This document shows, in pieces, positions 5,644 through 19,104 of a stretch of 64,000 bases of DNA. Source of the DNA: Candidatus Latescibacterota bacterium (GTDB taxonomy: Bacteria > Latescibacterota > CBDEFO01); contig OZ252149.1 of NCBI GenBank assembly GCA_965248755.1, positions 2,208,001 to 2,272,000 of the forward strand, read 5' to 3'. Position numbers and translations under genes: made by a program. The first letter of the stretch is position 1, and each line of letters starts with the position of its first letter. Below the pieces are notes generated by a model. The model was not told the DNA's origin. It saw only the letters and a list, made by a program, of their open reading frames with translations, and did not search any database.

Positions 5644-5834
5644 GTAAAGGTCAAAGCCAAGCAATCTGGTAGACATTAGACAGAGTAGACCTTCTCCTCC
5701 CTGTCTAAAGAGAAAAGGAGAAAGACTGTTCAGACAGAACGAACGATAGTCCACAGAGGCAGTGCGGCTTCTCTGCGCCAATGCTAGAACATCCAAGAGA
5801 TTTTAAGATCGAACGAAGACGAAAGAATAAAAGG

Positions 5835-6437
5835 GTGACAGAGGAAAAAAGATGTTCTTGGACAGGTAGTGATCCGTTAATGATTGAATATCACGATCTG
5901 GAGTGGGGGGTGCCTGTTCACGATGATAGGATGTTGTTTGAGATGATAACTTTAGAAGGGGCCCAAGCAGGCTTGACGTGGTCAACTATTCTTAAGAGAA
6001 GAGAAACTTATCGTAAAGCATTTGATAATTTTGATTCTGCTCTTGTTTCACAGTATACCGAGAGCCATGTTACACGATTACTACATGATAAAGGAATTAT
6101 TCGCAACAGGTTAAAAGTTCGCTCTGCAATTTGTAATGCTCAACTTTTCTTGGATATTCAAAAGCAATTTGGTGCTTTTGACAAATATATTTGGAAATTT
6201 GTCAACTATCAACCCATAAGAAATGAGTTCAAATCACTTTCGGACATACCTGATAAGACCGTGGAATCTGATGCCATGAGCAAAGACCTGAAAATGCGAG
6301 GTTTTAAATTCGTTGGGCCCACAATATGCTATGCGTTTATGCAATCAGTAGGCATGGCAAATGATCATGCTGTTGTTTGCTTCAGGTATGATGAGATAAA
6401 TGAACTGGTAGAGAATTCAAGAAACTGTAAGAAGTAA
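5835..6437 (+). CDS. tag: DNA-3-methyladenine glycosylase I
   Basis: RCSW, YHDLEWGVP, LEGAQAGLTW, IIRNRLK, GFKFVGPTICYAFMQSVG, NDH..C. GTG 5835 preferred over 5781. Confidence 0.95.
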   Translation: MTEEKRCSWTGSDPLMIEYHDLEWGVPVHDDRMLFEMITLEGAQAGLTWSTILKRRETYRKAFDNFDSALVSQYTESHVTRLLHDKGIIRNRLKVRSAICNAQLFLDIQKQFGAFDKYIWKFVNYQPIRNEFKSLSDIPDKTVESDAMSKDLKMRGFKFVGPTICYAFMQSVGMANDHAVVCFRYDEINELVENSRNCKK

Positions 6438-6990: not shown

Positions 6991-7071
6991 TACTATTTAC
7001 TGTCTACTGCTCCTAAAACAGGGATGGGTAGGATTGCCCTGTCTACTGTCTACTGTCTACTGTCTGCTGTC
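6991..7071. repeat. Heptamer (CTACTGT)n tandem repeat
   Basis: CTGTCTACTGTCTACTGTCTACTGTCTGCTGTC. Overlaps the LptE signal-peptide codons. Confidence 0.8.
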
Positions 7072-7548
7072 CTTTGCGTCCTTTCAGGGTGCGGAATCTA
7101 TTCGATGTCCAGTTCTTCCTACGCTCACATCAAGACGGTGGCGGTGCCGCTCTTTGAGATCTCAGATGACCAGAGCGTTGAGTACGGTGTAATAGAACAG
7201 TTGACAGATGTGGTGATTGACGGCCTGGTGGATGATGGGAGTCTTAGGGTCGTAGACGAAGATAGAGCCGATTCGATAATACGGGGGGTAGTGCTGAGGA
7301 TAAAAGATGAGCCGTTTACCTACAGCGCAAGGGAAGAGGCTCAAAGTTTCAGGATTCGCATCTTTGCCCAGATCTCCTATTTTGACGAGAAGAAGGACAA
7401 AGTGCTCTGGGAGGAAGAGGTCCTGGAGGGATGGGGAACGTACAGCGCCGAGTCGGGTGATAGCCAAGATGAAAGGGAAGAGGGGAAATTGGCTGCTATG
7501 GAGATGTTAGCCAAGGATATCATAGACCGCACTGCCTCAGGCTGGTAA
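7024..7548 (+). CDS. lptE: LptE-family lipoprotein (LPS assembly)
   Basis: Lipobox LSGC, then IKTVAVPLF, ADSIIRG and C-terminal LAKDII..W. ATG 7024 gives a normal-length signal peptide. Confidence 0.7.
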   Translation: MGRIALSTVYCLLSAVLCVLSGCGIYSMSSSSYAHIKTVAVPLFEISDDQSVEYGVIEQLTDVVIDGLVDDGSLRVVDEDRADSIIRGVVLRIKDEPFTYSAREEAQSFRIRIFAQISYFDEKKDKVLWEEEVLEGWGTYSAESGDSQDEREEGKLAAMEMLAKDIIDRTASGW

Positions 7549-7577
7549 TTTGAAGAAATGACTTACGGCACAGGATT

Positions 7578-10025
7578 ATGAGGAAAGCTATAGAAAAAGC
7601 TGCTGACTTTATAACCAGAATTCCCTATCTGGAAAGAGAGGTGGTGCGACGTACACTCCGCGTGCCACCTCTCCGTGTGCGACCACTCCGTGACGGAGAT
7701 TTGTTCGAAATAGAGATTTCCCTGGAGGAGATGCTCACCTTCTCTCAGGCCAGAAAGAACGATTACGCCAGGTTCATCGACCTTGTGGTTAAGATTCTGG
7801 ATGAGGATCTCGGAGAACTGAGCTTGAAATGGGGAGAGGAATTTAAGAGAGATCTGTCTCTCCTCCACTTCAGGAATCGCCTGGAGTCTCTGCTGAGGCT
7901 GGATAGGAACTATGCCGAAGGCTCTATTCCTCTATATATGTGCAAGTCCAACGTGCACGATATAGGTGACAATTTAAGGCGCGAGGCGTATATAAAGCTC
8001 AGCAAGATAGAGGAGAGCTACAGGAGACTCGAAGACGACTCTTTCAAGAGAACGCTCGTCAACGAGTCGTTCATTATGCTCAAGAATCTGATTTCAGAGC
8101 GGAACGATTCTGCTTCTGATGAGTTCTTGGAGTTCAAAAGGCTTGTGGAGGACTTCCCGTTTGACAGAGATTATAAGATAATCTCTCGGGGGTCCTGGAG
8201 GAGAACTGCTGAAATATTGCGGGAATACGTAAGCAGGAGTTTCTCAAGATTAAGGGCGGTATATGAACGATTGGATCTGCACTACAAGCAGAAGATAGAT
8301 CAAATACGAGTGCCTGAGGTTGTAGCTTACATAGATTCTCAGACTTTTTCCTTTGATAAGGATTTGAAGGAGGAACTTAAGGAGCTTTCCTGGCTGGACG
8401 ATTCTGTGAACTTGCTCTATCCCGAGGGAGAAGGTGAGGATAAGTTGAAAAGGAAAGTTCAGTTGGTCTATAGCCTCATCCATTTCAACCGGCTGTCGTT
8501 TGAGGAGATAGATTTCTCCTCAGGAGAAATATCGTCCAACACGAAGGATTCGATAAAGTACCAATTTCCTCTACACATAAGGTACTTGGCCGAAGAGGGA
8601 CAGAACAGTTTAGATCACAAGTCGTCTAAAGTAGTCTTCAAGTTTTGCTGCAACGGCTGCTCAATAGAAGACGATGGGTTGGCAATGGAACCGCAGTTTC
8701 TGTTCGGGACATATCCGCTCTTTAACGAGTCGAAAAAACTGAACGAAAAAGGAGTGGTAACCAGCAGAGGACGTATGGGGATAGGCAGCAAAGCCAAGCT
8801 CGTTGAGGTGTTGGAGGGAGGAGGAGAGGTGATAGTCATTTCAAAATCGGAATGTCCACTGCAAGGAGATAAGACATACCGAAACAGATATTCTCTGAAG
8901 GATGGGGAGATGTTTATAGGGTTTTCCAAGGCTTCAAGGAAAAAAAGAGGTGTAACGGTGAAGGTGTTCTACGGCGATAGGAGCGAATACGGAGCTGTGA
9001 AAGGACTTGTATTCAAGGGGAACCGCCTTCCAGAATTAAACAGGAAAAGGGAGAACGTAGTTAAACTCTACCTTGAGAACATATCCAAGTCCGAGATGCA
9101 GGTCTACATCGGAAGGAAAAGGATCAACAAACAGAATCCTTACAGGTTCACAAGAGATACAAAGGTGTATCAAATAGGGACAGAAAGAGGTACAATTCAG
9201 GCGGGGATAGATTACCGGACGCAAAGAGACATGGGAGAATTCAGGGTTCTTTCGGGGGACATATTCTTTCATTCCGAGTCGAGACCCTTCAACCTTGTGG
9301 TAAACTATCCTGTTGTCCTGGACCCTGTGGAGGGAAGGGATCACTTCGTAAAGAGCGAAGCGGTGTCTTACTATAATTACAACCTGGTCAAAGGAGGAGT
9401 GATCCCTTATCTTGAGTATATCAGGGAAGAATTTTCCAAGAAGGAACAGCTCCGAAAGCTCGAATCGGTACTTTATAACTTCCTTCAGGATAGAGGTCTT
9501 TTTGAGGACTTCTACAGACTGGCCTCGAAGGAGGAGATAACAGGACTGTTGCGCCTGCACAAAAGCTACAGCGAACTTGATCAAAGGGGCGACATAGTAT
9601 CCTTCGACGCGGAGTTAGACAAGAACACATCACTCTTTTTGAAGGGGTGTTACCTTGTAGATGTAAGCCGTTTCCCGGGGATTGAGGTAAGCCCTCACCT
9701 TTTAGATATCGGTAGCTTCCTATATCAAAACGGGATAGATAGTGGATCGTCCACAACAGGAGGGTCAAAGAGTTCCCGATGGAACGGTTCGTTCAGCAAA
9801 TTCTTCAAAGAGGTGGAAGCTGGAGGCATTGAGGTCTTTCCAATAAATCATCTAAATGGAGATGCTCCACTGCCCTTTGTGCTGTGGACGATGAAGGGGA
9901 AAAAACAGCTGATAGTAAACTTAAATCACAGGGTCTTCCGGACTACTGATGACGGAATTTCGCTGGCGTATCTAAGAGGGACATACAAGATATTAAACGC
10001 AAGTAAGTCACAATGGATTTTATAG
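7578..10025 (+). CDS. Hsp90/GHKL-like ATPase domain protein of unknown function
   Basis: Bergerat-fold-like motifs AEEGQNSLD, IEDDGLAM, GRMGIGSK. C-terminal LIVNLNHRVF resembles the Hsp90 LNxxHP motif. Confidence 0.6.
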   Translation: MRKAIEKAADFITRIPYLEREVVRRTLRVPPLRVRPLRDGDLFEIEISLEEMLTFSQARKNDYARFIDLVVKILDEDLGELSLKWGEEFKRDLSLLHFRNRLESLLRLDRNYAEGSIPLYMCKSNVHDIGDNLRREAYIKLSKIEESYRRLEDDSFKRTLVNESFIMLKNLISERNDSASDEFLEFKRLVEDFPFDRDYKIISRGSWRRTAEILREYVSRSFSRLRAVYERLDLHYKQKIDQIRVPEVVAYIDSQTFSFDKDLKEELKELSWLDDSVNLLYPEGEGEDKLKRKVQLVYSLIHFNRLSFEEIDFSSGEISSNTKDSIKYQFPLHIRYLAEEGQNSLDHKSSKVVFKFCCNGCSIEDDGLAMEPQFLFGTYPLFNESKKLNEKGVVTSRGRMGIGSKAKLVEVLEGGGEVIVISKSECPLQGDKTYRNRYSLKDGEMFIGFSKASRKKRGVTVKVFYGDRSEYGAVKGLVFKGNRLPELNRKRENVVKLYLENISKSEMQVYIGRKRINKQNPYRFTRDTKVYQIGTERGTIQAGIDYRTQRDMGEFRVLSGDIFFHSESRPFNLVVNYPVVLDPVEGRDHFVKSEAVSYYNYNLVKGGVIPYLEYIREEFSKKEQLRKLESVLYNFLQDRGLFEDFYRLASKEEITGLLRLHKSYSELDQRGDIVSFDAELDKNTSLFLKGCYLVDVSRFPGIEVSPHLLDIGSFLYQNGIDSGSSTTGGSKSSRWNGSFSKFFKEVEAGGIEVFPINHLNGDAPLPFVLWTMKGKKQLIVNLNHRVFRTTDDGISLAYLRGTYKILNASKSQWIL

Positions 10026-13000
10026 AGTTTGAATACGCTCTTTTGGAAGCGGTCAGGTGCGATCCGAAGCTTGTCGAGGCATTTTCCAGGGAGATAGCAG
10101 CGGGAAATTTGGACCTGGACCGGATTGAATGGATATTGAAAAGGGCCGGGCAAAGAGCAAATCTAGAGAACATCAGAAAGAGAATTGACCACGTTGTCAG
10201 GCATCAGCTCTTGGATGGGGAGAGGGTTCTAAGAGAGATAGGATGTCAGAACGTGACGGACGCGTACGACGATCTGACCACTCATCTTTTAGAGAACGGA
10301 GGTCATATAGAGTATCCGTTAAGAATAGAGGTAAGCTGGGAGCAGAATGGCCCCAACCTATTCGACGTGTCCATAAGGGATTGGGCTCTGGGGATGATCC
10401 TCCACGACGTTCTTTTCAAGCTTCTTTCCATAGGCGATACCACAAAGATGGGAAAGGAGAATCAATATGGAGGTCACGGCATCGGCTTCAAGCCCGCCCT
10501 GGAGTACAGCCATGAAGTGACGATAGAATCTCATGGATGTCTGACGCGCGCATGGAAAGATGGTGAATATTCCGATCGACCATCGTCGCCTGAAAGCCCG
10601 AATAGATATACGCTGAGGATCGGCGAAAAGAGCGACATATTTGAGGGAACCAAGATCACACTTAAAGGGCTGGTTTTAAATTCAGCCAACCCTACCGATT
10701 TCTTCTCCAAGGTGGGGCCATATCAGACTGAAGGTAAATATCTTTTGACCGTCAACGGAGAGCCCGTCTCAGGCAATTCTGAGACAAAGGGCGGAAGGAT
10801 TAAGACGTACAGAACCAAAGAGGAATACGACTACGAAGATAGAAAGATCTCCGTCGACATCTCTTTACGGGCTGTGGGCCGCTCCTCTGCCGAAGAGGTA
10901 TTCCTTCAGGGAGGCTGGGTCGGATTTAAAAGACCGAGCCGCGATGGGATGACTCAGAGCACCTTCGAACTCCCTTCAAACGTTTTGCTCCCAAGGACAA
11001 GGGAGAACATCCCCGGGGATCTGGAGGAGTCGATAACGGGAAAGATGGACCGCATAAAGACGGGCTTTTACTATTATTTGAAGGAGAATATCTCCTCTGT
11101 CAACGCTTACGAGTGGAGATTTTTGAAGAGATACAGACCCTCCTTTGGAAGGGTGATAAGGGATATATTACAGAACAGGAACGTCAGGACGTTTAACTCC
11201 TTTTTCATTTTTCCCTTTATATTGATAACTATTTTGTCGCTGGGATTGTATCCGATTGCTCACTCAATCCAGATGAAACTTGGGTCGTCCAGGAGCAAGG
11301 TGGCAGAATCAGAGTTAGACGGAAATGCATCGAGCACCATTCACAAGCCCCGCATTTCTTGGGCTATGGACGGCGCGCCTCCATTTCTTCATTTTAGGCC
11401 GAAAAAAATTCTCTATCTCAAGTCCGGGGTATATGATATTCTGCAGCCGGACGGAACTTGGGCCAAAAGCAGAGAAAGATTCCATCGTATAAGTAGCACA
11501 GACACGGCACTTTTGGAAATGCCACAAAGGCCGAATGTGGAGAATTGGGGGAGGAATTTCGAGTTCGAATGGAAAGTTCAGTCCAGAAAAGGAAAAATCA
11601 TCGTCCTGATGCCCTTTAATTCCACCGCCTTATGGTTTGGTCTTAACGACAGTCAAATAGATGAAATTTACGTAAACAAACTAGGCGAGATGACTGTAGA
11701 GGTGGGGAGAAAATTCGACGGGCAGGTTAGATACAATGTCCTCGCGCAGGAGGGAAACGGAGACAAGATCTATGAGCCCGACGAGTTGACCGAGGCCGAA
11801 TTTCACAAATATACGCAGGTGCCCTTTGACATCGCTTATCCTGTAGAGATATTCAACGCTCTTAATTCCCTTTACGACCTGGATTCTGAAACGCAGGTCG
11901 AGGCGGTGGAAGATTATCTCAAAAATACCATGTTATACAGCACCAGCAGGAGAACATCCAGGGTCTTCAAAAACAGCCAGATGAATATCGTAGATACGGC
12001 ACTGAAGTACATGGTGGGAGACTGCGATGTCGCCAACACTGTTTTAGCAGCGATAGTGCGGGATCAATTCGAGATTCCGACCCGTCTGGTGGTGGGGTAT
12101 AGGACAAAACCCGGCACTGCGTCTCCTCCGGGACACGGATGGATAGAGGCTTACATACCGGGGATGGGATGGAGGATATTTGACGCTTCGGGTATCCGCA
12201 CAAAGGAAGGGCCGTGGATGATCCTGTTTAATCGCATCAGAGCGGTCTACAACGACTTTATCAGAGATAAGCTGAACTATATATTGGCTCATTCCATAGG
12301 GTATACCAGAGAGAATCTATATGTATCTATCTCTGTTTTGCTCTTGCTGTGGATATTGGGGCTTTACGTTCTGAAAAGATGGGACGAAGAGAGCAAGAAA
12401 AAGGGCAAAGATAGCATCCCCATAAGCGAATTCATGCGAAAAATATCCGATTTGCACAGGTCCTTCAAAGAGATATTTTCCCCTCTGGACAATCAGGAGA
12501 TCATAGAGGCGGTCATTATAAATCGCAAAGGTATAAAGGATAAGGCTATCAGTGTGAATACTGCTAAAAAGTATTATAGCAAGGGATGTCTTTTCTTGGG
12601 AGAGCCCAAGAGCAGAGATCCTGAGTACGGCTGCTACATCGTGGATTTCGGGTTTTACTCCATGATCACACGGCATGCTGAGATTAAGGATACTTCTGGT
12701 AGGGACAAGAGAGATGGGAATAGGGACAAGAAAGCGCTCTTAAAGGCGACAATTTTGGGGGATTTTGTCCCCAGTGGAGTCAAGCAAGTGGCGATTTCAG
12801 AGTCGGCTGATAGCACAAGAGGCAGATTCGAAAGGAGGATTACAAGCTTTGTGGATATAAGTGTAAGTGCGAGCGGACTTTCCGGGATCGATCTGGATTT
12901 TGAGCGCGGCTTTACGCCCAAAGAGGAGCTTACAGGCATAAGAAAGAATTTCTGGAGGCTGGGCAGGCGACGCATCCTCATAAATATGTGGAACGAGGTG

Positions 13001-13261
13001 GTCGTAGACTTAATGAAGACCGAGCGTTCACTGCAGAAGGGAGAGGACGGGGAAGATTACGAACCGCTATCGGAGTTGATAGATTCGGTCAACTGGAGAA
13101 TCGCTTCGATACGAAGGGCTCACTTATCAGACACAGCAGAAAGAGAGCTGGATGTCGAGGAGGCGTACAGCATAGTGACAAGAAACTACCTCAACGCCCT
13201 GTTGGATATGTCTATTAAAGAGGAAGCAGGAGAAGGAGAATGGATAGAAAAAAGCTATTAG
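10013..13261 (+). CDS. GHKL-like ATPase + TM + transglutaminase-like domain + TM fusion protein
   Basis: REIGCQNVTDA, IRDWALGM, YGGHGIGFK. TMs near 11200-11260 and 12316-12372. TGase triad GDCD / HGW / IFDA with RLVVGY. Confidence 0.75.
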   Translation: MDFIEFEYALLEAVRCDPKLVEAFSREIAAGNLDLDRIEWILKRAGQRANLENIRKRIDHVVRHQLLDGERVLREIGCQNVTDAYDDLTTHLLENGGHIEYPLRIEVSWEQNGPNLFDVSIRDWALGMILHDVLFKLLSIGDTTKMGKENQYGGHGIGFKPALEYSHEVTIESHGCLTRAWKDGEYSDRPSSPESPNRYTLRIGEKSDIFEGTKITLKGLVLNSANPTDFFSKVGPYQTEGKYLLTVNGEPVSGNSETKGGRIKTYRTKEEYDYEDRKISVDISLRAVGRSSAEEVFLQGGWVGFKRPSRDGMTQSTFELPSNVLLPRTRENIPGDLEESITGKMDRIKTGFYYYLKENISSVNAYEWRFLKRYRPSFGRVIRDILQNRNVRTFNSFFIFPFILITILSLGLYPIAHSIQMKLGSSRSKVAESELDGNASSTIHKPRISWAMDGAPPFLHFRPKKILYLKSGVYDILQPDGTWAKSRERFHRISSTDTALLEMPQRPNVENWGRNFEFEWKVQSRKGKIIVLMPFNSTALWFGLNDSQIDEIYVNKLGEMTVEVGRKFDGQVRYNVLAQEGNGDKIYEPDELTEAEFHKYTQVPFDIAYPVEIFNALNSLYDLDSETQVEAVEDYLKNTMLYSTSRRTSRVFKNSQMNIVDTALKYMVGDCDVANTVLAAIVRDQFEIPTRLVVGYRTKPGTASPPGHGWIEAYIPGMGWRIFDASGIRTKEGPWMILFNRIRAVYNDFIRDKLNYILAHSIGYTRENLYVSISVLLLLWILGLYVLKRWDEESKKKGKDSIPISEFMRKISDLHRSFKEIFSPLDNQEIIEAVIINRKGIKDKAISVNTAKKYYSKGCLFLGEPKSRDPEYGCYIVDFGFYSMITRHAEIKDTSGRDKRDGNRDKKALLKATILGDFVPSGVKQVAISESADSTRGRFERRITSFVDISVSASGLSGIDLDFERGFTPKEELTGIRKNFWRLGRRRILINMWNEVVVDLMKTERSLQKGEDGEDYEPLSELIDSVNWRIASIRRAHLSDTAERELDVEEAYSIVTRNYLNALLDMSIKEEAGEGEWIEKSY

Positions 13262-14328
13262 AGGATCTCCTTCAGACTTCAGGTGCAGAGGGGCTAAGGG
13301 AATATGAAGGACAGCAGGGGGAGCTTCTAAAAGATGCGATGTCGCATTTCATAGAATCCCTCCACTACAGGTATGTGCTGATAGCGGAAAAGTACTTCTC
13401 CACTTTTTTGGAGGTCATAAGGGAGAAGCTGGGCCTGTCTGGAGTTGTCACGGGACGGAATAAGGTAGATGTCGTATTGGACATGGCTCTAAAGTCGGAG
13501 TCGTTTTCGGCTCTGGCGTCCCATATAAACAGCACGTCAGAGTACCAGATAGACGGCCTCCATATAGATTGCCTCGATTGGTCTGAGCGCAGGCATCGGG
13601 AGGACGATGTAAAGCTCTGCTCCTTAGATGCAAAGCTCAGACTCTTTTGGGATCTCTTTAAGCAAGAAGGCGCTTGGGACTTGGAGGAACTTGGGGAGCG
13701 CATAGAGCGAATTGAGGAGATATTCTTCTCCTTAGACGCTTGCTGTCAGGAGTTTCTGTCGGATAGAAAGAGGCTAAGATCAGTTTCAAAGATGAACAGG
13801 GCTTCGCAGTTGGGTTACATCATAAATTTAGTGAGAGGAACGGCCATAGAGGAGATAGAAAAAAGTGGGCTCTTCCTTGATGATTACGTAGAATACTTCA
13901 GGATGAATCACAGGTGTGGTTGGCTGAGAGACTATCTGGAGAGGTTCTACAGGGAAAACCACGGCAAGATACGCAAGATCAAAAGGAGGGTGCGACTTGT
14001 GGGGTGGACGAGCATGGTAGCGGGCATAGCAGGGGTCTTATATTTACAGGATTTCCTGAAGATGGTCGGAAATAGCGGAGATATATCGCTTGGACTCTTA
14101 GATCCACTTGCGGATTTCTATGCTGAATACGGGAATGTCCGTTTTTTGCACTCTTTCCAGGACTTTTTCTTAGGGTTTTTTGCAATTCTCTATCCGATCT
14201 ATCTGGTGGGCATGCTCCCGTATCCTTATATGAAGAGGCAGGAGACAAACATTAACGCCCTGTATAAGGGGGAAAATATTCTTACGGAGGACTATAAGAT
14301 AAAGTTGGACAGGGAGCACGAGGGGTAG
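13240..14328 (+). CDS. Hypothetical helical protein with two C-terminal TM segments
   Basis: 362-aa ORF, GAAGGAG RBS, overlaps upstream gene. Hydrophobic LVGWTSMVAGIAGVLYL and FFLGFFAILYPIYLVGML. Confidence 0.7.
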   Translation: MDRKKLLEDLLQTSGAEGLREYEGQQGELLKDAMSHFIESLHYRYVLIAEKYFSTFLEVIREKLGLSGVVTGRNKVDVVLDMALKSESFSALASHINSTSEYQIDGLHIDCLDWSERRHREDDVKLCSLDAKLRLFWDLFKQEGAWDLEELGERIERIEEIFFSLDACCQEFLSDRKRLRSVSKMNRASQLGYIINLVRGTAIEEIEKSGLFLDDYVEYFRMNHRCGWLRDYLERFYRENHGKIRKIKRRVRLVGWTSMVAGIAGVLYLQDFLKMVGNSGDISLGLLDPLADFYAEYGNVRFLHSFQDFFLGFFAILYPIYLVGMLPYPYMKRQETNINALYKGENILTEDYKIKLDREHEG

Positions 14329-14333
14329 CGGCT

Positions 14334-15350
14334 ATGAATATAACAGATTTGGGAGAGTTTGGCCTTATAGACAGAATAAAAAAATGCGTGACAACACCCC
14401 AAAAATTCGTTATAATTGGAATTGGAGATGATACTGCTGTTTTAGAGGCGGAGGATGGAAATCTCTTGCTATTTGCGTCCGACACTTTAGTAGAAGGAGT
14501 GCACTTCAAAAGGGAGCACATTCCCTTTTGCGATGTCGGATGGAGGGCGATGGCCGCTAACGTGAGCGACATAGCGGCCATGGGAGGTGAGCCGGTCTGC
14601 GCTCTGGTCTCCCTTTGCCTTTCAAAGAAGATGGACGTCGAGGACGTTGAGGCTCTCTACAGTGGGATGGACCGGGTCGGGTCGGAGTTCGGCTGTCCCA
14701 TAATCGGCGGAGATACTACATCTTCTCCAGATTCGGCTGTAATTTCGATTTCAGTTTTGGGGAGGACGAATAAAGAAAGATTGACTCTTCGAAGCGGCGC
14801 TCACATCGGTGACACAATCTGCCTGACGGGTGCATTAGGGGGTTCCAAAGCCGGATTGGAACTTCTATCTCGAACCGCAAATTTTAATCTTGACTCTGCA
14901 GATATCGATTATTTAAAAGAAAGATATCGCCGACCTTATCCCAGAATTTCAGAAGCTTTTGCTATGGGAGATGTCGCTTCCATCCATGCTGCAATAGACA
15001 TAAGCGACGGGCTGTCGTCGGAGATGAATCATATATGCAGAGAGAGCAACAAAGGGGCGCAGATATTCTCCGATAAAGTTCCCATACATAGCGCCACCCG
15101 TCAAGTGGCGGCCCAAGATTCTTCTACTGGTATGGAATACGCCCTGTCGGGAGGGGAGGACTTTGAGCTCCTCTTTACGCTCGGGGAATCGGATGTCCAG
15201 AAAGTAAAATCTTCCCTCCAGGAGAGGACAGGAACTCCCATGTCAGTTATAGGCAATATCACAGATCCAAAAGAGGGGATCCATATTGTCTACGGCGATG
15301 GAAAAAAAGAGAAATTGGAGAGCTCAGGATACCGGCATTTCGCGGATTAG
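14334..15350 (+). CDS. thiL: Thiamine-monophosphate kinase
   Basis: GEFGLI, GIGDDTA, DTLVEGVHF, NVSDIAAMGG, GGDT, DISDGL, GGEDFEL. Confidence 0.97.
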   Translation: MNITDLGEFGLIDRIKKCVTTPQKFVIIGIGDDTAVLEAEDGNLLLFASDTLVEGVHFKREHIPFCDVGWRAMAANVSDIAAMGGEPVCALVSLCLSKKMDVEDVEALYSGMDRVGSEFGCPIIGGDTTSSPDSAVISISVLGRTNKERLTLRSGAHIGDTICLTGALGGSKAGLELLSRTANFNLDSADIDYLKERYRRPYPRISEAFAMGDVASIHAAIDISDGLSSEMNHICRESNKGAQIFSDKVPIHSATRQVAAQDSSTGMEYALSGGEDFELLFTLGESDVQKVKSSLQERTGTPMSVIGNITDPKEGIHIVYGDGKKEKLESSGYRHFAD

Positions 15351-15370
15351 ACGGATCTAAGTAGACAGAT

Positions 15371-15518
15371 GAGATTGGTTCCGCTTCGCGTCTGGTTCGG
15401 GGTCGGGGTTCCACCCCTTGCAATGACTGAGGGTCAAGTCAAAGGATGTCATTGCGAGTCCCCGATTGAATCTATCGGGGAAGCCCAGAGCGAAGCCAAG
15501 GGTCAGCGAAGTAAACTC
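15371..15518. repeat. Composite palindromic repeat (GAGATTG..GCAATGAC / GTCATTGCGAG..) with nested 21-bp element at 15460-15480
   Basis: Inverted GCAATGAC/GTCATTGC arms. CCCCGATTGAATCTATCGGGG inside. Confidence 0.75.
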
Positions 15519-15623
15519 AAGGGATGGGAGATGTCCTGTCGGCTTAACTTAGAATTGGCGGAGCTCTTTTAAGCAGAGCCCTAAGCGCAGCCATCATGCG
15601 TAGCCTTCATGCGCAGCCCTAAT

Positions 15624-16118
15624 ATGGAAGAAAAGGCACTAGGACTTATAGAGACTAAGGGATTTGTGGGTGTTGTGGAGGCTGCCGATGCGGCTGCCAA
15701 GGCCGCGAACGTAGAAGTAGTCTCTTATAAACTGACCACAGGGGGACTGGTTATGATAAGTATCGTAGGTGATGTGGGTTCTGTGCAGGCTGCGGTGAGT
15801 GCAGGCGGAGAGGCCGTCAAAGAAGTGGGCGAGCTTGTAAGCATGCACGTCATACCCAGACCCTATGGGGATCTCATAAATGTGCTTGGTCTGAGGGACA
15901 TTTCAAGGGAAAGGGCTGAGACAGGCGTAGAGGATCCCTCCAAAGTCGGTGACGTCCCTTCTGACGATCTGGATTCTATGACGGTTGTGCAACTCAGAAG
16001 ATTGGCCCGCGGCATCCAAGGATTGAGTATAAAGGGGAGGAAGATTTCATCGGCCAACAAAGAGAAATTAACTGAGGAGATCAGAAAAGCCAGAAAAAAC
16101 AGAAACGAAAATGGATAG
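15624..16118 (+). CDS. BMC-H microcompartment shell protein (EutM/PduA-like) with C-terminal Rho-N-like helical extension
   Basis: ALGLIETKG, AADAAAKAANV, GDVGSVQAAV, HVIPRP. Tail LDSMTVVQLRRLAR..ISSANKEKL. Confidence 0.9.
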   Translation: MEEKALGLIETKGFVGVVEAADAAAKAANVEVVSYKLTTGGLVMISIVGDVGSVQAAVSAGGEAVKEVGELVSMHVIPRPYGDLINVLGLRDISRERAETGVEDPSKVGDVPSDDLDSMTVVQLRRLARGIQGLSIKGRKISSANKEKLTEEIRKARKNRNENG

Positions 16119-16950
16119 CAATGAAGACATCGAATTCTTGAAGGAATTTCGAGAAAAGATAGATAAGTATCTGTTTTTGGGGTATGCTCCATCTGAAGGA
16201 AGTTTATTCGCTGATATTGAGGGATCGGCTAAAATGAAACAAGCACTAAAAAATCCAGAGTTTCAAGAACTTCGCCGAACTATAAACGAAATGAAGCCTC
16301 GAGTAGAGCAATTGTTAGTAGAATGTGATCTCAGCGACGTATTTGTTATGTATCGTCCTCCCGCGGCTGGTGGTCAAGTTGTGCAGTTCAAAATGTTTAA
16401 TTTGATTACAGAAAACCCTACACATAAAAGACTCCCTAAAGAAACTTTCTTTGACGTAATCGATCAAGCCATTGGAATGTTGAAAACAAATCCGCCTGAA
16501 AAGAGAAAATCGAAAGTAGAGAGAATAGCACCAACTATTATAAAAGGACTTATTTTTATTGCTATGCCAATGGGCCTTGATGATTCTGGATTGGAAGATG
16601 TGCATGACACAATAAAGGATGTGGCAAGTGAAGATGGATTTGAGGCGAAACGAGTAGATGACCCAGAATCGAATCAGCGAATAACACCTAGAATCTTAGA
16701 ATGGTTGAAAAAAGCTGAGTTTGTTATTGCTGATTTAACTCACTCAAAGCCAAATGTATATTTTGAGGCAGGTTACGCAGAAGCAATGGGTAATATCCCG
16801 ATATATATTGCAAAAGAAGGTACACAGATAGAATTCGATGTTAAAGATTGTCCAGTAATATTCTTCAAGAACTTAAGAGAGCTTAAAACAGAATTGAGCA
16901 AACGATTAACAGGATTAAAGGAAGGAAGTCAAAAAGAGCAGAAGAGCTGA
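16111..16950 (+). CDS. TIR-like / nucleoside 2-deoxyribosyltransferase-like domain protein
   Basis: IFIAMPM, RVDD, AEFVIADLT..KPNVYFEAGYA. Visibly AT-richer than flanks. Confidence 0.75.
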   Translation: MDSNEDIEFLKEFREKIDKYLFLGYAPSEGSLFADIEGSAKMKQALKNPEFQELRRTINEMKPRVEQLLVECDLSDVFVMYRPPAAGGQVVQFKMFNLITENPTHKRLPKETFFDVIDQAIGMLKTNPPEKRKSKVERIAPTIIKGLIFIAMPMGLDDSGLEDVHDTIKDVASEDGFEAKRVDDPESNQRITPRILEWLKKAEFVIADLTHSKPNVYFEAGYAEAMGNIPIYIAKEGTQIEFDVKDCPVIFFKNLRELKTELSKRLTGLKEGSQKEQKS

Positions 16951-17396: not shown

Positions 17397-17472
17397 GTAG
17401 GGGCGAGAACTGTCCCCGAATGACTCTATCGGGGATCCCTCGCCCCAAGGGCTGGGTAACCCAGCCCCTACA
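17397..17472. repeat. GTAG-headed REP-like doublet with nested 21-bp element (17414-17434)
   Basis: GTAGGGGCGAG..CTCGCCCC followed by inverted AGGGCTGGGTAACCCAGCCCCTAC, between convergent genes. Confidence 0.75.
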
Positions 17473-17512
17473 TTATACGGGATACGGGGAGGAGAGGCGG
17501 TGCCCCTGTTTA

Positions 17513-18199
17513 CTACCTACTGTCTGCTAAATTTGTCTCCTCCAAGATCTTCAACGTCTCCTTGCAGATTATGTCTTTGCCCGCCAAGACCAGCCCTGTT
17601 AAATGTGTCTTTAAGAACTCCAATTCATCAGGCGTGTCCACGTCATACCATGGCGGCAGAAGATGGAGGCTCTTCCCCTCTGTCCGGATTGTTGTCAGCG
17701 TTTCATTTAGAACTTTATCCGTTCCCAACTCTATGTCCGTAAACATCTGCGGGAACTCCTCTTTTAGCCCGACAAGATAGTATCCGCCATCTGTGCAGGG
17801 ACCTAACACAACAGAGTTATCATCAAGCGCTTCAAAGGATAAATTTATATAATCGGCAGGAAGATCTGGGCTGTCCGACCCGATTATGACGGCCTTCGAT
17901 CCTCCCTTTTCAAATACCCATTTGAACGCTTCGATCAGTCTTTCGCCTAAACTATTCCCATATTGAGGCCGAAAGCTGAATGCGCCTTTTATGATAGATT
18001 TTATCGTCGCCTGGGCATGCGCGGGGGAATAAGCTATCACCTTATGGTCACATCTTGTGGACTCAAAAAGATTTGGTAGATCAAGAAGGAAAGCTCTGTA
18101 CAGCTTTGCGGCATTGTGAGGGTCCAAAAGCGGGGTAAGTCGGGTCTTGACCTGCCCGGGAACAGGTTCTTTGACAAAGGCGATAAGAGTTGAACTTAT
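17513..18199 (-). CDS. TIGR04282/DUF2064-family glycosyltransferase-like protein
   Basis: FVKEPVPGQVKTRL, QYGNSLGER, IIGSDSPDLP, VLGPCTDGGYYLVG, WYDVDT. The conserved N-terminus needs a start at ATA 18199. Confidence 0.85.
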   Translation of the reverse strand: MSSTLIAFVKEPVPGQVKTRLTPLLDPHNAAKLYRAFLLDLPNLFESTRCDHKVIAYSPAHAQATIKSIIKGAFSFRPQYGNSLGERLIEAFKWVFEKGGSKAVIIGSDSPDLPADYINLSFEALDDNSVVLGPCTDGGYYLVGLKEEFPQMFTDIELGTDKVLNETLTTIRTEGKSLHLLPPWYDVDTPDELEFLKTHLTGLVLAGKDIICKETLKILEETNLADSR

Positions 18200-19104
18200 A
18201 GCTTTTCACCTCTTTTCGTCTCTACGATCTTTCTTATGCTTATGCTATCCCCTCTTTTGACCCCGATCTTTTGGGCCAAATTCCCCCTGTTGATCGCCAC
18301 CTCAAAGGCACCTGTACTTCCGATCAGACAAAGATATTCTCCTTTAGTGACATCTGCGTAAGCCTTCACGTATTTGGCTCTTATTTCTACATCTTTGATC
18401 TTAAGTATTATAAGGTCACCTCTTCCAATTTCGATCTTTCTTAGCAGTTCCTCCTGCACGTTTGTAATCACGTTTCCGTATTTGTCTATCGTTACTGCGT
18501 TGCCTATGATCATATCCTTCTGCACTACAGGAGAACGATCTTTCAGTCTGACATAATCTTTAAGCACAGGCCCCACACGCTCTATAGGGAATCCCGAAGC
18601 CAGATGAGCGGCGCAGGTCCCGAAGATGTCTTTCCCGTGAAATGTGCTGGATAGTCTGCCTTTGCGCATTACGTGGGGGTTGGAGATTTCGTATATGACA
18701 TCGAGTCCCAAGCTATCCATCACCACACTGAAGAGACCGTTGTCAGGCCCTACAAAGAACTTTCCATCTTTGGTCTTTAAGGCCACAGGCTTCCTTTCGG
18801 TTCCCACACCCGGATCCACTACGGCGACGAAGACTGTTCCCTTTGGGAACTCGGCTGCGGCTTTCTGGAGGGTGTAAGCTCCTTCGGCGATCTCGAAGGA
18901 GGAGACGTTGTGCGAGATATCGTCTATCCTCACCTCGGGGTAGATCGAGTATATGACTCCCTTGACGGCTCCGACGTAGAAATCTTTCGTCCCGAAGTCT
19001 GTTATTAAAATGACGAGTCCGTTTGTCTCTTTGCTATGGAGAATATCGGCGCATAGGATGAACGTCAAGGTTGTTATCACAAATGTCTTGGCCAAATTTT
19101 TCAT
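18196..19104 (-). CDS. SAM hydroxide adenosyltransferase / chlorinase-fluorinase family (DUF62) with N-terminal hydrophobic leader
   Basis: LITDFG, VAVVDPGVGTER, GPDNG, SSTFHGKDIF, IDKYGNVITN, EVAINRG. Confidence 0.92.
   Translation of the reverse strand: MKNLAKTFVITTLTFILCADILHSKETNGLVILITDFGTKDFYVGAVKGVIYSIYPEVRIDDISHNVSSFEIAEGAYTLQKAAAEFPKGTVFVAVVDPGVGTERKPVALKTKDGKFFVGPDNGLFSVVMDSLGLDVIYEISNPHVMRKGRLSSTFHGKDIFGTCAAHLASGFPIERVGPVLKDYVRLKDRSPVVQKDMIIGNAVTIDKYGNVITNVQEELLRKIEIGRGDLIILKIKDVEIRAKYVKAYADVTKGEYLCLIGSTGAFEVAINRGNLAQKIGVKRGDSISIRKIVETKRGEKL

Follow-up and report, generated by a model that had tools for sequence, protein, structure and literature searches.

The GHL clamps that have been characterised (Hsp90, MutL, topoisomerases, MORC and Tiamat) all, to our knowledge, work on substrates in their own compartment. 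Here, we analysed a 64,000-nucleotide (nt) stretch of a Candidatus Latescibacterota bacterium (assembly GCA_965248755.1, contig OZ252149.1, positions 2,208,001 to 2,272,000 of the forward strand; hereafter the window), in which three adjoining open reading frames, ORF1, ORF2 and ORF3, form a cassette that joins Hsp90-like ATPases to a transglutaminase-like domain predicted to lie outside the cytoplasm. ORF1 and ORF2 resemble Hsp90 (HtpG, TRAP1, GRP94) in the GHKL fold, in a transducer with a conserved Arg and in a modelled closed two-fold-like dimer, but differ from it in having no Pfam match to PF00183 (middle and C-terminal domains), in the membrane hairpin with an outside enzyme that follows the ORF2 transducer, and in the predicted pairing of two different subunits whose sites are unequal. 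In Pseudomonas aeruginosa, TgpA (PA2873) is membrane-bound and outward-facing and shares with ORF2 the whole periplasmic domain and its Cys-His-Asp triad; it lacks an ATPase and crosses the membrane with six helices (PMC3507681), whereas ORF2 has only two such helices and carries a GHKL domain at its N-terminus. Tiamat (TmtA) and the Tiamat-like GHL proteins are likewise reported to have a GHL ATPase, a transducer Arg and a swappable effector, but neither DUF3684 nor a TPR-like core nor a PD-(D/E)xK nuclease was detected in ORF1 or ORF2, ORF2 spans the membrane, and the word transglutaminase occurs 0 times in the main text of the preprint (10.64898/2026.09.30.754977). MutL-alpha (MLH1-PMS2) also pairs two different GHKL subunits that use ATP asymmetrically (PMC12733681), but is soluble, directed at DNA and has a nuclease output. 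Phage RIIA is membrane-associated with a similar GHKL domain, but the match covers only about 200 residues of the ATPase and there is no transglutaminase. A literature search, with subscription papers mostly outside its reach, found no account of the fusion or of the cassette, and no named system with this architecture was found; an earlier note made from the sequence alone had likewise recognised none. Taken together, this is a real and undescribed membrane Hsp90-like ATPase-transglutaminase system, of which the window holds a rare archaeal-type three-gene form.

The cassette starts 29 nt after lptE and ends 5 nt before thiL, with all three genes on the + strand and overlaps of 13 nt (ORF1/ORF2) and 22 nt (ORF2/ORF3). 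The lengths, overlaps and flanks agree with what the earlier note had described, and every motif it had cited for ORF1 and ORF2 is present in the translations, those of ORF2 being atypical (E-x4-N, D-x-A-x-G). Given that lptE is present, we judged the host to be a diderm bacterium. The features are as follows.

7578..10025, + strand: ORF1, 815 aa, soluble Hsp90-like GHKL paralogue, modelled clamp partner of ORF2
7578..8507, + strand: N-terminal extension of ORF1, residues 1-310, no family match
8520..9437, + strand: GHKL ATPase and transducer of ORF1, with E339-x3-N343, D365-x-G367, G398-xx-G401-x-G403 and Arg587
10013..13261, + strand: ORF2, 1082 aa, fusion of GHKL, transducer, membrane helix, transglutaminase, membrane helix and cytoplasmic tail
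10142..11140, + strand: GHKL domain (residues 44-257) and transducer (to about residue 376, with Arg328) of ORF2, with E75-x4-N80 and D123-x-A125-x-G127
11201..11257, + strand: membrane helix 1 of ORF2, residues 397-415, predicted in to out (Lys plus Arg 7 before, 3 after)
11312..12202, + strand: predicted extracytoplasmic TgpA-like domain of ORF2, residues 434-730, from the structure match and the triad
12023, 12134 and 12182: triad of ORF2, Cys671, His708 and Asp724
12317..12373, + strand: membrane helix 2 of ORF2, residues 769-787, predicted out to in (Lys plus Arg 3 before, 8 after)
12374..13258, + strand: predicted cytoplasmic tail of ORF2, a 'KISL..G.L' subdomain and then a region without HExxH
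13240..14328, + strand: ORF3, 362 aa, helical, with two C-terminal membrane helices and no family match

ORF2 was modelled with AlphaFold2 from a 118-row alignment, at a mean predicted local distance difference test score (pLDDT) of 68. The model matched TRAP1 over residues 44-257 (Z 16.4) and GRP94 over residues 44-374 (Z 15.6), supporting a GHKL fold, and residues 434-730 matched the two-part TgpA periplasmic domain 6g4h with Z 18.9 and a root-mean-square deviation of 3.7 over 248 aligned residues. Foldseek placed the TgpA and Hsp90 families on top, with E 3e-9 to 6g49. The sole Pfam match of ORF2 was Transglut_core (PF01841; E 3.6e-11, 43.7 bits against a cut-off of 23), and Cys671, His708 and Asp724 were invariant in 61/61 aligned rows. 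Arg328 of the transducer was also invariant (alignment A3), and GxxGxG and T213 are retained. The charge bias around the two helices suggests that both ends of ORF2 are cytoplasmic and that the enzyme domain is outside. The architecture, which the earlier note had read as a membrane helix, a transglutaminase-like domain and a second membrane helix, is secure, and its idea of an extracytoplasmic Cys enzyme finds support in the fold match, the triad and the charge bias. The tail was modelled at low confidence and barely covered by the fold searches; its end possibly has a degenerate metallopeptidase-like fold.

ORF1 gave only a sub-threshold Pfam match to HATPase_c_3 (E 0.072), which its homologues pass. 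Its profile aligned with the N-terminus of the ORF2 family (hhalign 98%, E 9e-14), bearing out the GHKL fold proposed for it. No hydrophobic helices were predicted in ORF1, and its transducer carries Arg587 in a PVEGR loop, a putative catalytic Arg by analogy with Hsp90 and Tiamat. The extension of residues 1-310 is present in archaeal homologues too and absent from the partner gene found in Myxococcota; a single-sequence fold of ORF1 was discarded (pLDDT 33) and did not resolve the fold of this extension. None of the three genes had a paralogue in the host genome by tblastn or phmmer. The genome also contains four further transglutaminase-core genes.

We then considered whether the two ATPases form one clamp, as the earlier note had supposed. 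A complex of ORF2 1-380 and ORF1 310-815 with ATP and Mg was modelled in three runs and scored 0.61 (runs 0.61, 0.74 and 0.00) against 0.00 for the best control, with contact agreement of at least 75% and partner pLDDT of at least 72. The score mark was reached by 116/157 solved and 2/215 mismatched pairs, counts that are only roughly valid for this complex. In the modelled interface, ORF2 53-68 lies on ORF1 381-402 and 580-595, and ORF1 319-332 lies on ORF2 140-157 and 325-338. The arrangement is two-fold-like, with the segment before the N-box of each subunit packing on the lid and Arg loop of the other, and we read it as a closed GHKL dimer. The modelling thus supports an ORF1-ORF2 heterodimer, which we consider probable.

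Pairing of two such ATPases also occurs in a second, distant clade from bacteria. The ESM Atlas holds a 108-member cluster with both domains, mostly from Myxococcota, and a GTDB scan confirmed at least 481 stretches among the 599 matches listed, some of which may be other GHKL proteins. The loci counted here are the best 80 of the 481, from Myxococcota and Acidobacteriota where named, and their fusions have the same order of GHKL, membrane helix, transglutaminase and membrane helix as ORF2. A gene of about 510 aa lies downstream of the fusion in 68/80 loci, and the 12 misses end within the fusion gene; the spacing has a median of 1 nt and is at most 100 nt in 62/68. This partner is itself a GHKL protein, paralogous to the N-terminus of the fusion (hhalign 95%). 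ORF1 differs from it in lying upstream of the fusion and in keeping its ATP motifs, and the two align at hhalign 9.5%; a tree test did not show that the two kinds of partner arose independently (approximately unbiased p 0.28). The fusion was found in 42/44 genomes of the Nannocystaceae, the family of Nannocystis exedens, and, under a stricter criterion, in at least 2/201 across the phylum Myxococcota. In four Nannocystaceae genomes (G401, G403, G383 and G412) extra frames of 550-785 aa match only the ATPase-transducer part. The fusion genes of loci L045 and L098 are broken by a frameshift that lies past the transglutaminase domain, and a candidate fusion of main gene and partner at L045 was rejected because the frameshift runs the frame into the partner.

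The ATP sites of GHKL proteins are scored by the consensus motifs ExxxN, DxGxG and GxxGxG. In the bacterial fusions these were found in 105/105, 104/105 and 105/105 sequences, respectively, while all 36 of the partners that were aligned (of 68) lacked both the Asn and GxxGxG. In the window clade, E-x4-N together with D-x-A-x-G was found in ORF2 and 6/7 of its relatives (7/8 in all), and the seventh relative, P0008, deviates from the canonical site in other ways. ExxxN, DxG, GxxGxG and the EGR loop were present in 5/5 of ORF1 and its four homologues, one of them near-identical. From these motifs, we infer that in each dimer one ATP site works and the other is impaired, and that the two clades have these roles on opposite subunits, so that the asymmetry of the window clade is apparently reversed relative to the bacterial one. 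These observations also bear on the possibility that ORF1 and ORF2 are separate homodimers linked by ancestry only, with ORF2 a self-contained membrane clamp and ORF1 a stand-in chaperone. GHL proteins are usually homodimers, according to the Tiamat preprint (10.64898/2026.09.30.754977), the host genome, which is 98% complete, has no match to PF00183 (HtpG), and the complex controls contained no homodimers. However, the two genes are tightly linked in two distant clades, and the motif-dead partner of one clade could hardly cycle alone, which makes separate homodimers very unlikely.

The closest relatives of the cassette are archaeal. Within the host phylum, ORF1 and ORF3 were found in 2/168 genomes (that of the window and one of the same genus), and ORF2 matched 13/168, of which 11 through the transglutaminase core only; a word-index search with ORF2 returned only the same-genus protein. 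The full HMMER scan yielded 192 proteins at E 0.001, and among the 150 listed the best full-length matches were P0002-P0006 and P0008, 3/6 of them named Woesearchaeota. Five large proteins (P0009, P0011, P0013, P0016 and P0019), in which no GHKL was detected, have transglutaminase cores that the tree places close to the ORF2 core. A metagenome scan recovered two archaeal loci out of 154 pattern matches, both with a homologue of ORF1 (E 5e-30 and 5e-27 by blastp) followed by the fusion and a third gene (371 or 522 aa, hydrophobic in its C-terminal part), in flanks unrelated to those of the window. In a tree of 45 ATPase-transducer regions, unrooted and with long branches, two groupings had support of 100/100: ORF2 with the fusions from archaea, and ORF1 with the ORF1-like proteins from archaea. 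These data suggest that the cassette was likely transferred from archaea. A tree of the transglutaminase inserts, for which the choice of rows was biased, did not separate one origin from two. No match was found in a plasmid search with P0017 or in a tblastn search of 50,697 phage records with ORF2 1-396; in viral contigs, matches to the ATPase part alone were obtained with A4 and A8 and none with A11, and no full-length relative was found.

The claim of a conserved three-gene co-occurrence stood in part: homologues of ORF1 and ORF2 are paired in both archaeal loci, but homology of ORF3 was not detected and the bacterial clade has two genes. ORF3 had no match in Pfam or NCBIfam, and a family search returned nothing beyond its own input relatives. 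The third genes of the two archaeal loci are related to each other (E 2e-12); against them ORF3 gave hhalign 0.5% and rank 614 of 874 in an HMM comparison, and in global alignments it ranked 3 of 654 decoys against one (z 2.9) and 80 against the other (z 0.7). Since the archaeal third genes are not detectably related to ORF3, it is a positional counterpart only, and its standing as a conserved third member is the weaker claim, drawn from position, size and C-terminal helices. The two membrane helices noted earlier were predicted at residues 251-269 (13990-14046; the weaker, 1.52) and 309-327 (14164-14220).

We further identified relatives with a different enzyme. The HMMER scan also yielded proteins of 690-780 aa that share the N-terminus of the ORF2 clade (hhalign 99.95%), have a short hydrophobic hairpin and no transglutaminase, and carry the 'KISL..G.L' subdomain (hhalign 87%). 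All full-length members (5/5), together with two cluster mates, have a C-terminal HExxH and a later His; P0050 is a fragment and stands outside this tally. The family comprises P0010, P0032, P0048, P0101, P0132 and P0156, one of them named Woesearchaeota, and no Pfam peptidase profile matched it. HExxH was absent from the tails of the fusions (0/113; 0/8 in the window clade and 0/105 in bacteria). FtsH has a similar layout of a membrane hairpin, a cytoplasmic ATPase and HExxH, but is a hexameric AAA+ unfoldase, whereas the HExxH relatives have a GHKL clamp as their ATPase, and in ORF2 the catalytic domain lies outside. Because the relatives without transglutaminase have HExxH and the fusions do not, a peptidase swap is suggested, in which an ancestral membrane GHKL-metallopeptidase would have lost its inside site where the outside cysteine enzyme came in. 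The Tiamat preprint describes metallopeptidase-like folds on GHL proteins as well, both active and inactive, some of them lacking HExxH (10.64898/2026.09.30.754977).

We propose an asymmetric heterodimeric clamp of the Hsp90 type, made of ORF1 and ORF2, at the inner face of the cytoplasmic membrane, in which ATP binding would shut the two GHKL-transducer halves. The canonical ORF1 site would carry the main hydrolysis, while the atypical ORF2 site would bind ATP with slow or no turnover. Since the block of membrane helix, transglutaminase and membrane helix directly follows the ORF2 transducer, the clamp cycle could act by gripping a client, either secreted or in the membrane, or by shifting the helices, and so license the outside Cys-His-Asp domain to cut the client (more likely) or to cross-link it. 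Its job would be envelope protein processing or quality control, and ORF3 may be a lineage-specific membrane anchor or client. Work on the envelope is the natural reading given that TgpA is outward-facing with transglutaminase activity in vitro; cutting and cross-linking are not separable from sequence. We give this mechanism, an ATP clamp controlling an outside cysteine peptidase or transamidase that acts on envelope proteins, a probability of about 0.45. Of its elements, the folds, the topology, the intact triad, the pairing of the genes and the motif asymmetry come from computation and the heterodimer from modelling, while the site of hydrolysis, the coupling across the membrane, the peptidase chemistry, the client and the part played by ORF3 are proposals.

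Several observations speak against it. One of the three complex runs scored 0, the controls were without homodimers, and the pass itself may reflect likeness to solved Hsp90/GHKL dimers. The window copy of ORF1 reads DxGxA, with Ala at the second Gly of DxGxG, and has V for T; in ORF2, Glu75 is invariant, and the N-box insertion could be a helix bulge that holds it in place. The last part of the ORF2 tail aligned with the HExxH region at hhalign only 1.35% (E 0.038), no client is apparent in the gene neighbourhoods, and related strains carry ORF2 frameshifts, so that ORF2 may be dispensable in the host genus. Moreover, purified TgpA has transglutaminase activity in vitro (PMC3507681), favouring cross-linking over cutting. 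The last point leads to a different reading, a TgpA-like constitutive transamidase that cross-links surface or wall polymers outside the cell, with the GHKL pair only assembling, positioning or resetting it, which is what the MoxR analogy of the earlier note would imply. It would fit the match of the whole outside region of ORF2 to the TgpA periplasmic domain, the link of TgpA to viability (PMC3507681) and the core-like retention of the fusion in Nannocystaceae. However, the system occurs in archaea and in diderm bacteria, whose walls differ, wall or surface genes do not recur beside the fusion, and the HExxH-bearing relatives indicate a peptidase slot; we hold such a cross-linker to be unlikely.

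The earlier note had also named anti-phage defence, and a Tiamat-like conflict system would have the GHKL clamp sense a phage protein and use the membrane enzyme as effector. PADLOC matched TmtA on ORF2 137-175 (E 1.7e-5), the spread is patchy (2/168 genomes of the host phylum, with archaeal closest relatives), Tiamat exchanges effectors, including peptidases, according to the preprint (10.64898/2026.09.30.754977), and a TIR-like gene lies 1.8 kb downstream of the cassette. However, the TmtA match is 39 residues of the ATP lid only, Pfam at E 0.1 detected no DUF3684 or nuclease domain in the cassette proteins, and the near-universal presence of the fusion in Nannocystaceae (42/44) runs counter to defence. 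Among 144 neighbour ORFs at 36 loci (heuristic gene calls, cut at 450 aa), PADLOC matched four, as generic helicase, kinase or weak matches, and the TIR-like gene is missing from close strains that retain the cassette. Defence is thus poorly supported, and we regard it as quite unlikely.

A last alternative is that the cassette is an old horizontal acquisition of the host genus that is now decaying and has little function. The same-genus genome G009, 97% identical across the cassette, has 2 extra nt at window 12962-12963 (ORF2 codon 984), as do run X5 and a minor X1 contig, and one X4 contig has 1 extra nt at 11592 (ORF2 codon 527), before the catalytic core. The ratio of nonsynonymous to synonymous polymorphism (pN/pS) was 0.37, 0.51 and 0.29 for ORF1, ORF2 and ORF3 against a median of 0.26 over 87 genes, ORF2 being at the 87th percentile. 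On the other hand, neutrality is rejected for each of the three genes (p 2e-4, 3e-3 and 1.5e-3), the window copy is intact with all catalytic residues present, and codon usage is host-typical (70th-82nd percentile), so that any transfer of the cassette would be old. Since frame-breaking indels were seen in 17/91 compared genes between two genomes, the ORF2 frameshifts may be errors or relaxed selection. Decay of the cassette is therefore highly improbable in our judgement. Two other genes of the window had high pN/pS against G009, a methyladenine glycosylase gene (5781-6437; 1.22) and a 302-aa gene (18196-19104; 1.02), with only 4 and 5 synonymous changes.

In the surroundings of the cassette, promoter and terminator scans gave signals at chance level. 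Because lptE was within 1.5 kb of thiL in 0/28 loci, no pre-insertion state is known; candidate insertion joints near 7055-15460 were rejected, their sides being only about 20 nt and inside repeats. TgpA-type genes often stand in operons with MoxR and DUF58 genes; none of either lies beside the cassette, where the flanks are lptE and thiL, and the two MoxR genes of the host genome are both more than 600 kb away. The earlier note's suggestion that the GHKL clamp takes the place of the MoxR module is an analogy. The likely true start of lptE is the ATG at 7024, within a short tandem repeat (7020-7075) with about 105 blast matches genome-wide, near which G009 has an additional inserted 396-aa ORF. 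Intergenic repeats resembling repetitive extragenic palindromes lie at 15381-15520 and 17400-17500 (226 and 50 genome blast matches). The TIR-like or nucleoside deoxyribosyltransferase-like gene at 16111-16950 (+ strand) matched a PADLOC effector (E 6.5e-10), has a third-position GC content of 0.30 and is flanked by a 15-bp direct repeat (16080 and 17006); it is missing from G009 and from runs X4 and X5, indicating a recent insertion or deletion.

The component domains of this system are already known, which limits the surprise. Going further, the system may represent an undescribed class, spread over archaea and bacteria, of heterodimeric Hsp90-type machines that span the membrane, in which ATP-driven closure of the cytoplasmic clamp would switch a cysteine peptidase or transamidase on the far side. 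Such a class would descend from a GHKL-metallopeptidase of FtsH-like layout that exchanged its HExxH site for an outside enzyme, and in each of its two branches the ATP site of one subunit would work and that of the other be crippled, with the roles swapped between the branches; this wider proposal is tentative and, as a whole, somewhat unlikely to hold. The idea is testable, since cultured Nannocystaceae carry the two-gene form. Asymmetric use of ATP is a standing question for Hsp90 and MutL, on which the two branches are an apparent natural experiment, and the system may give a handle on the role of TgpA-type domains. If true, a membrane-built clamp whose enzyme sits outside would offer cytoplasmic ATP a new way to drive chemistry beyond the membrane.

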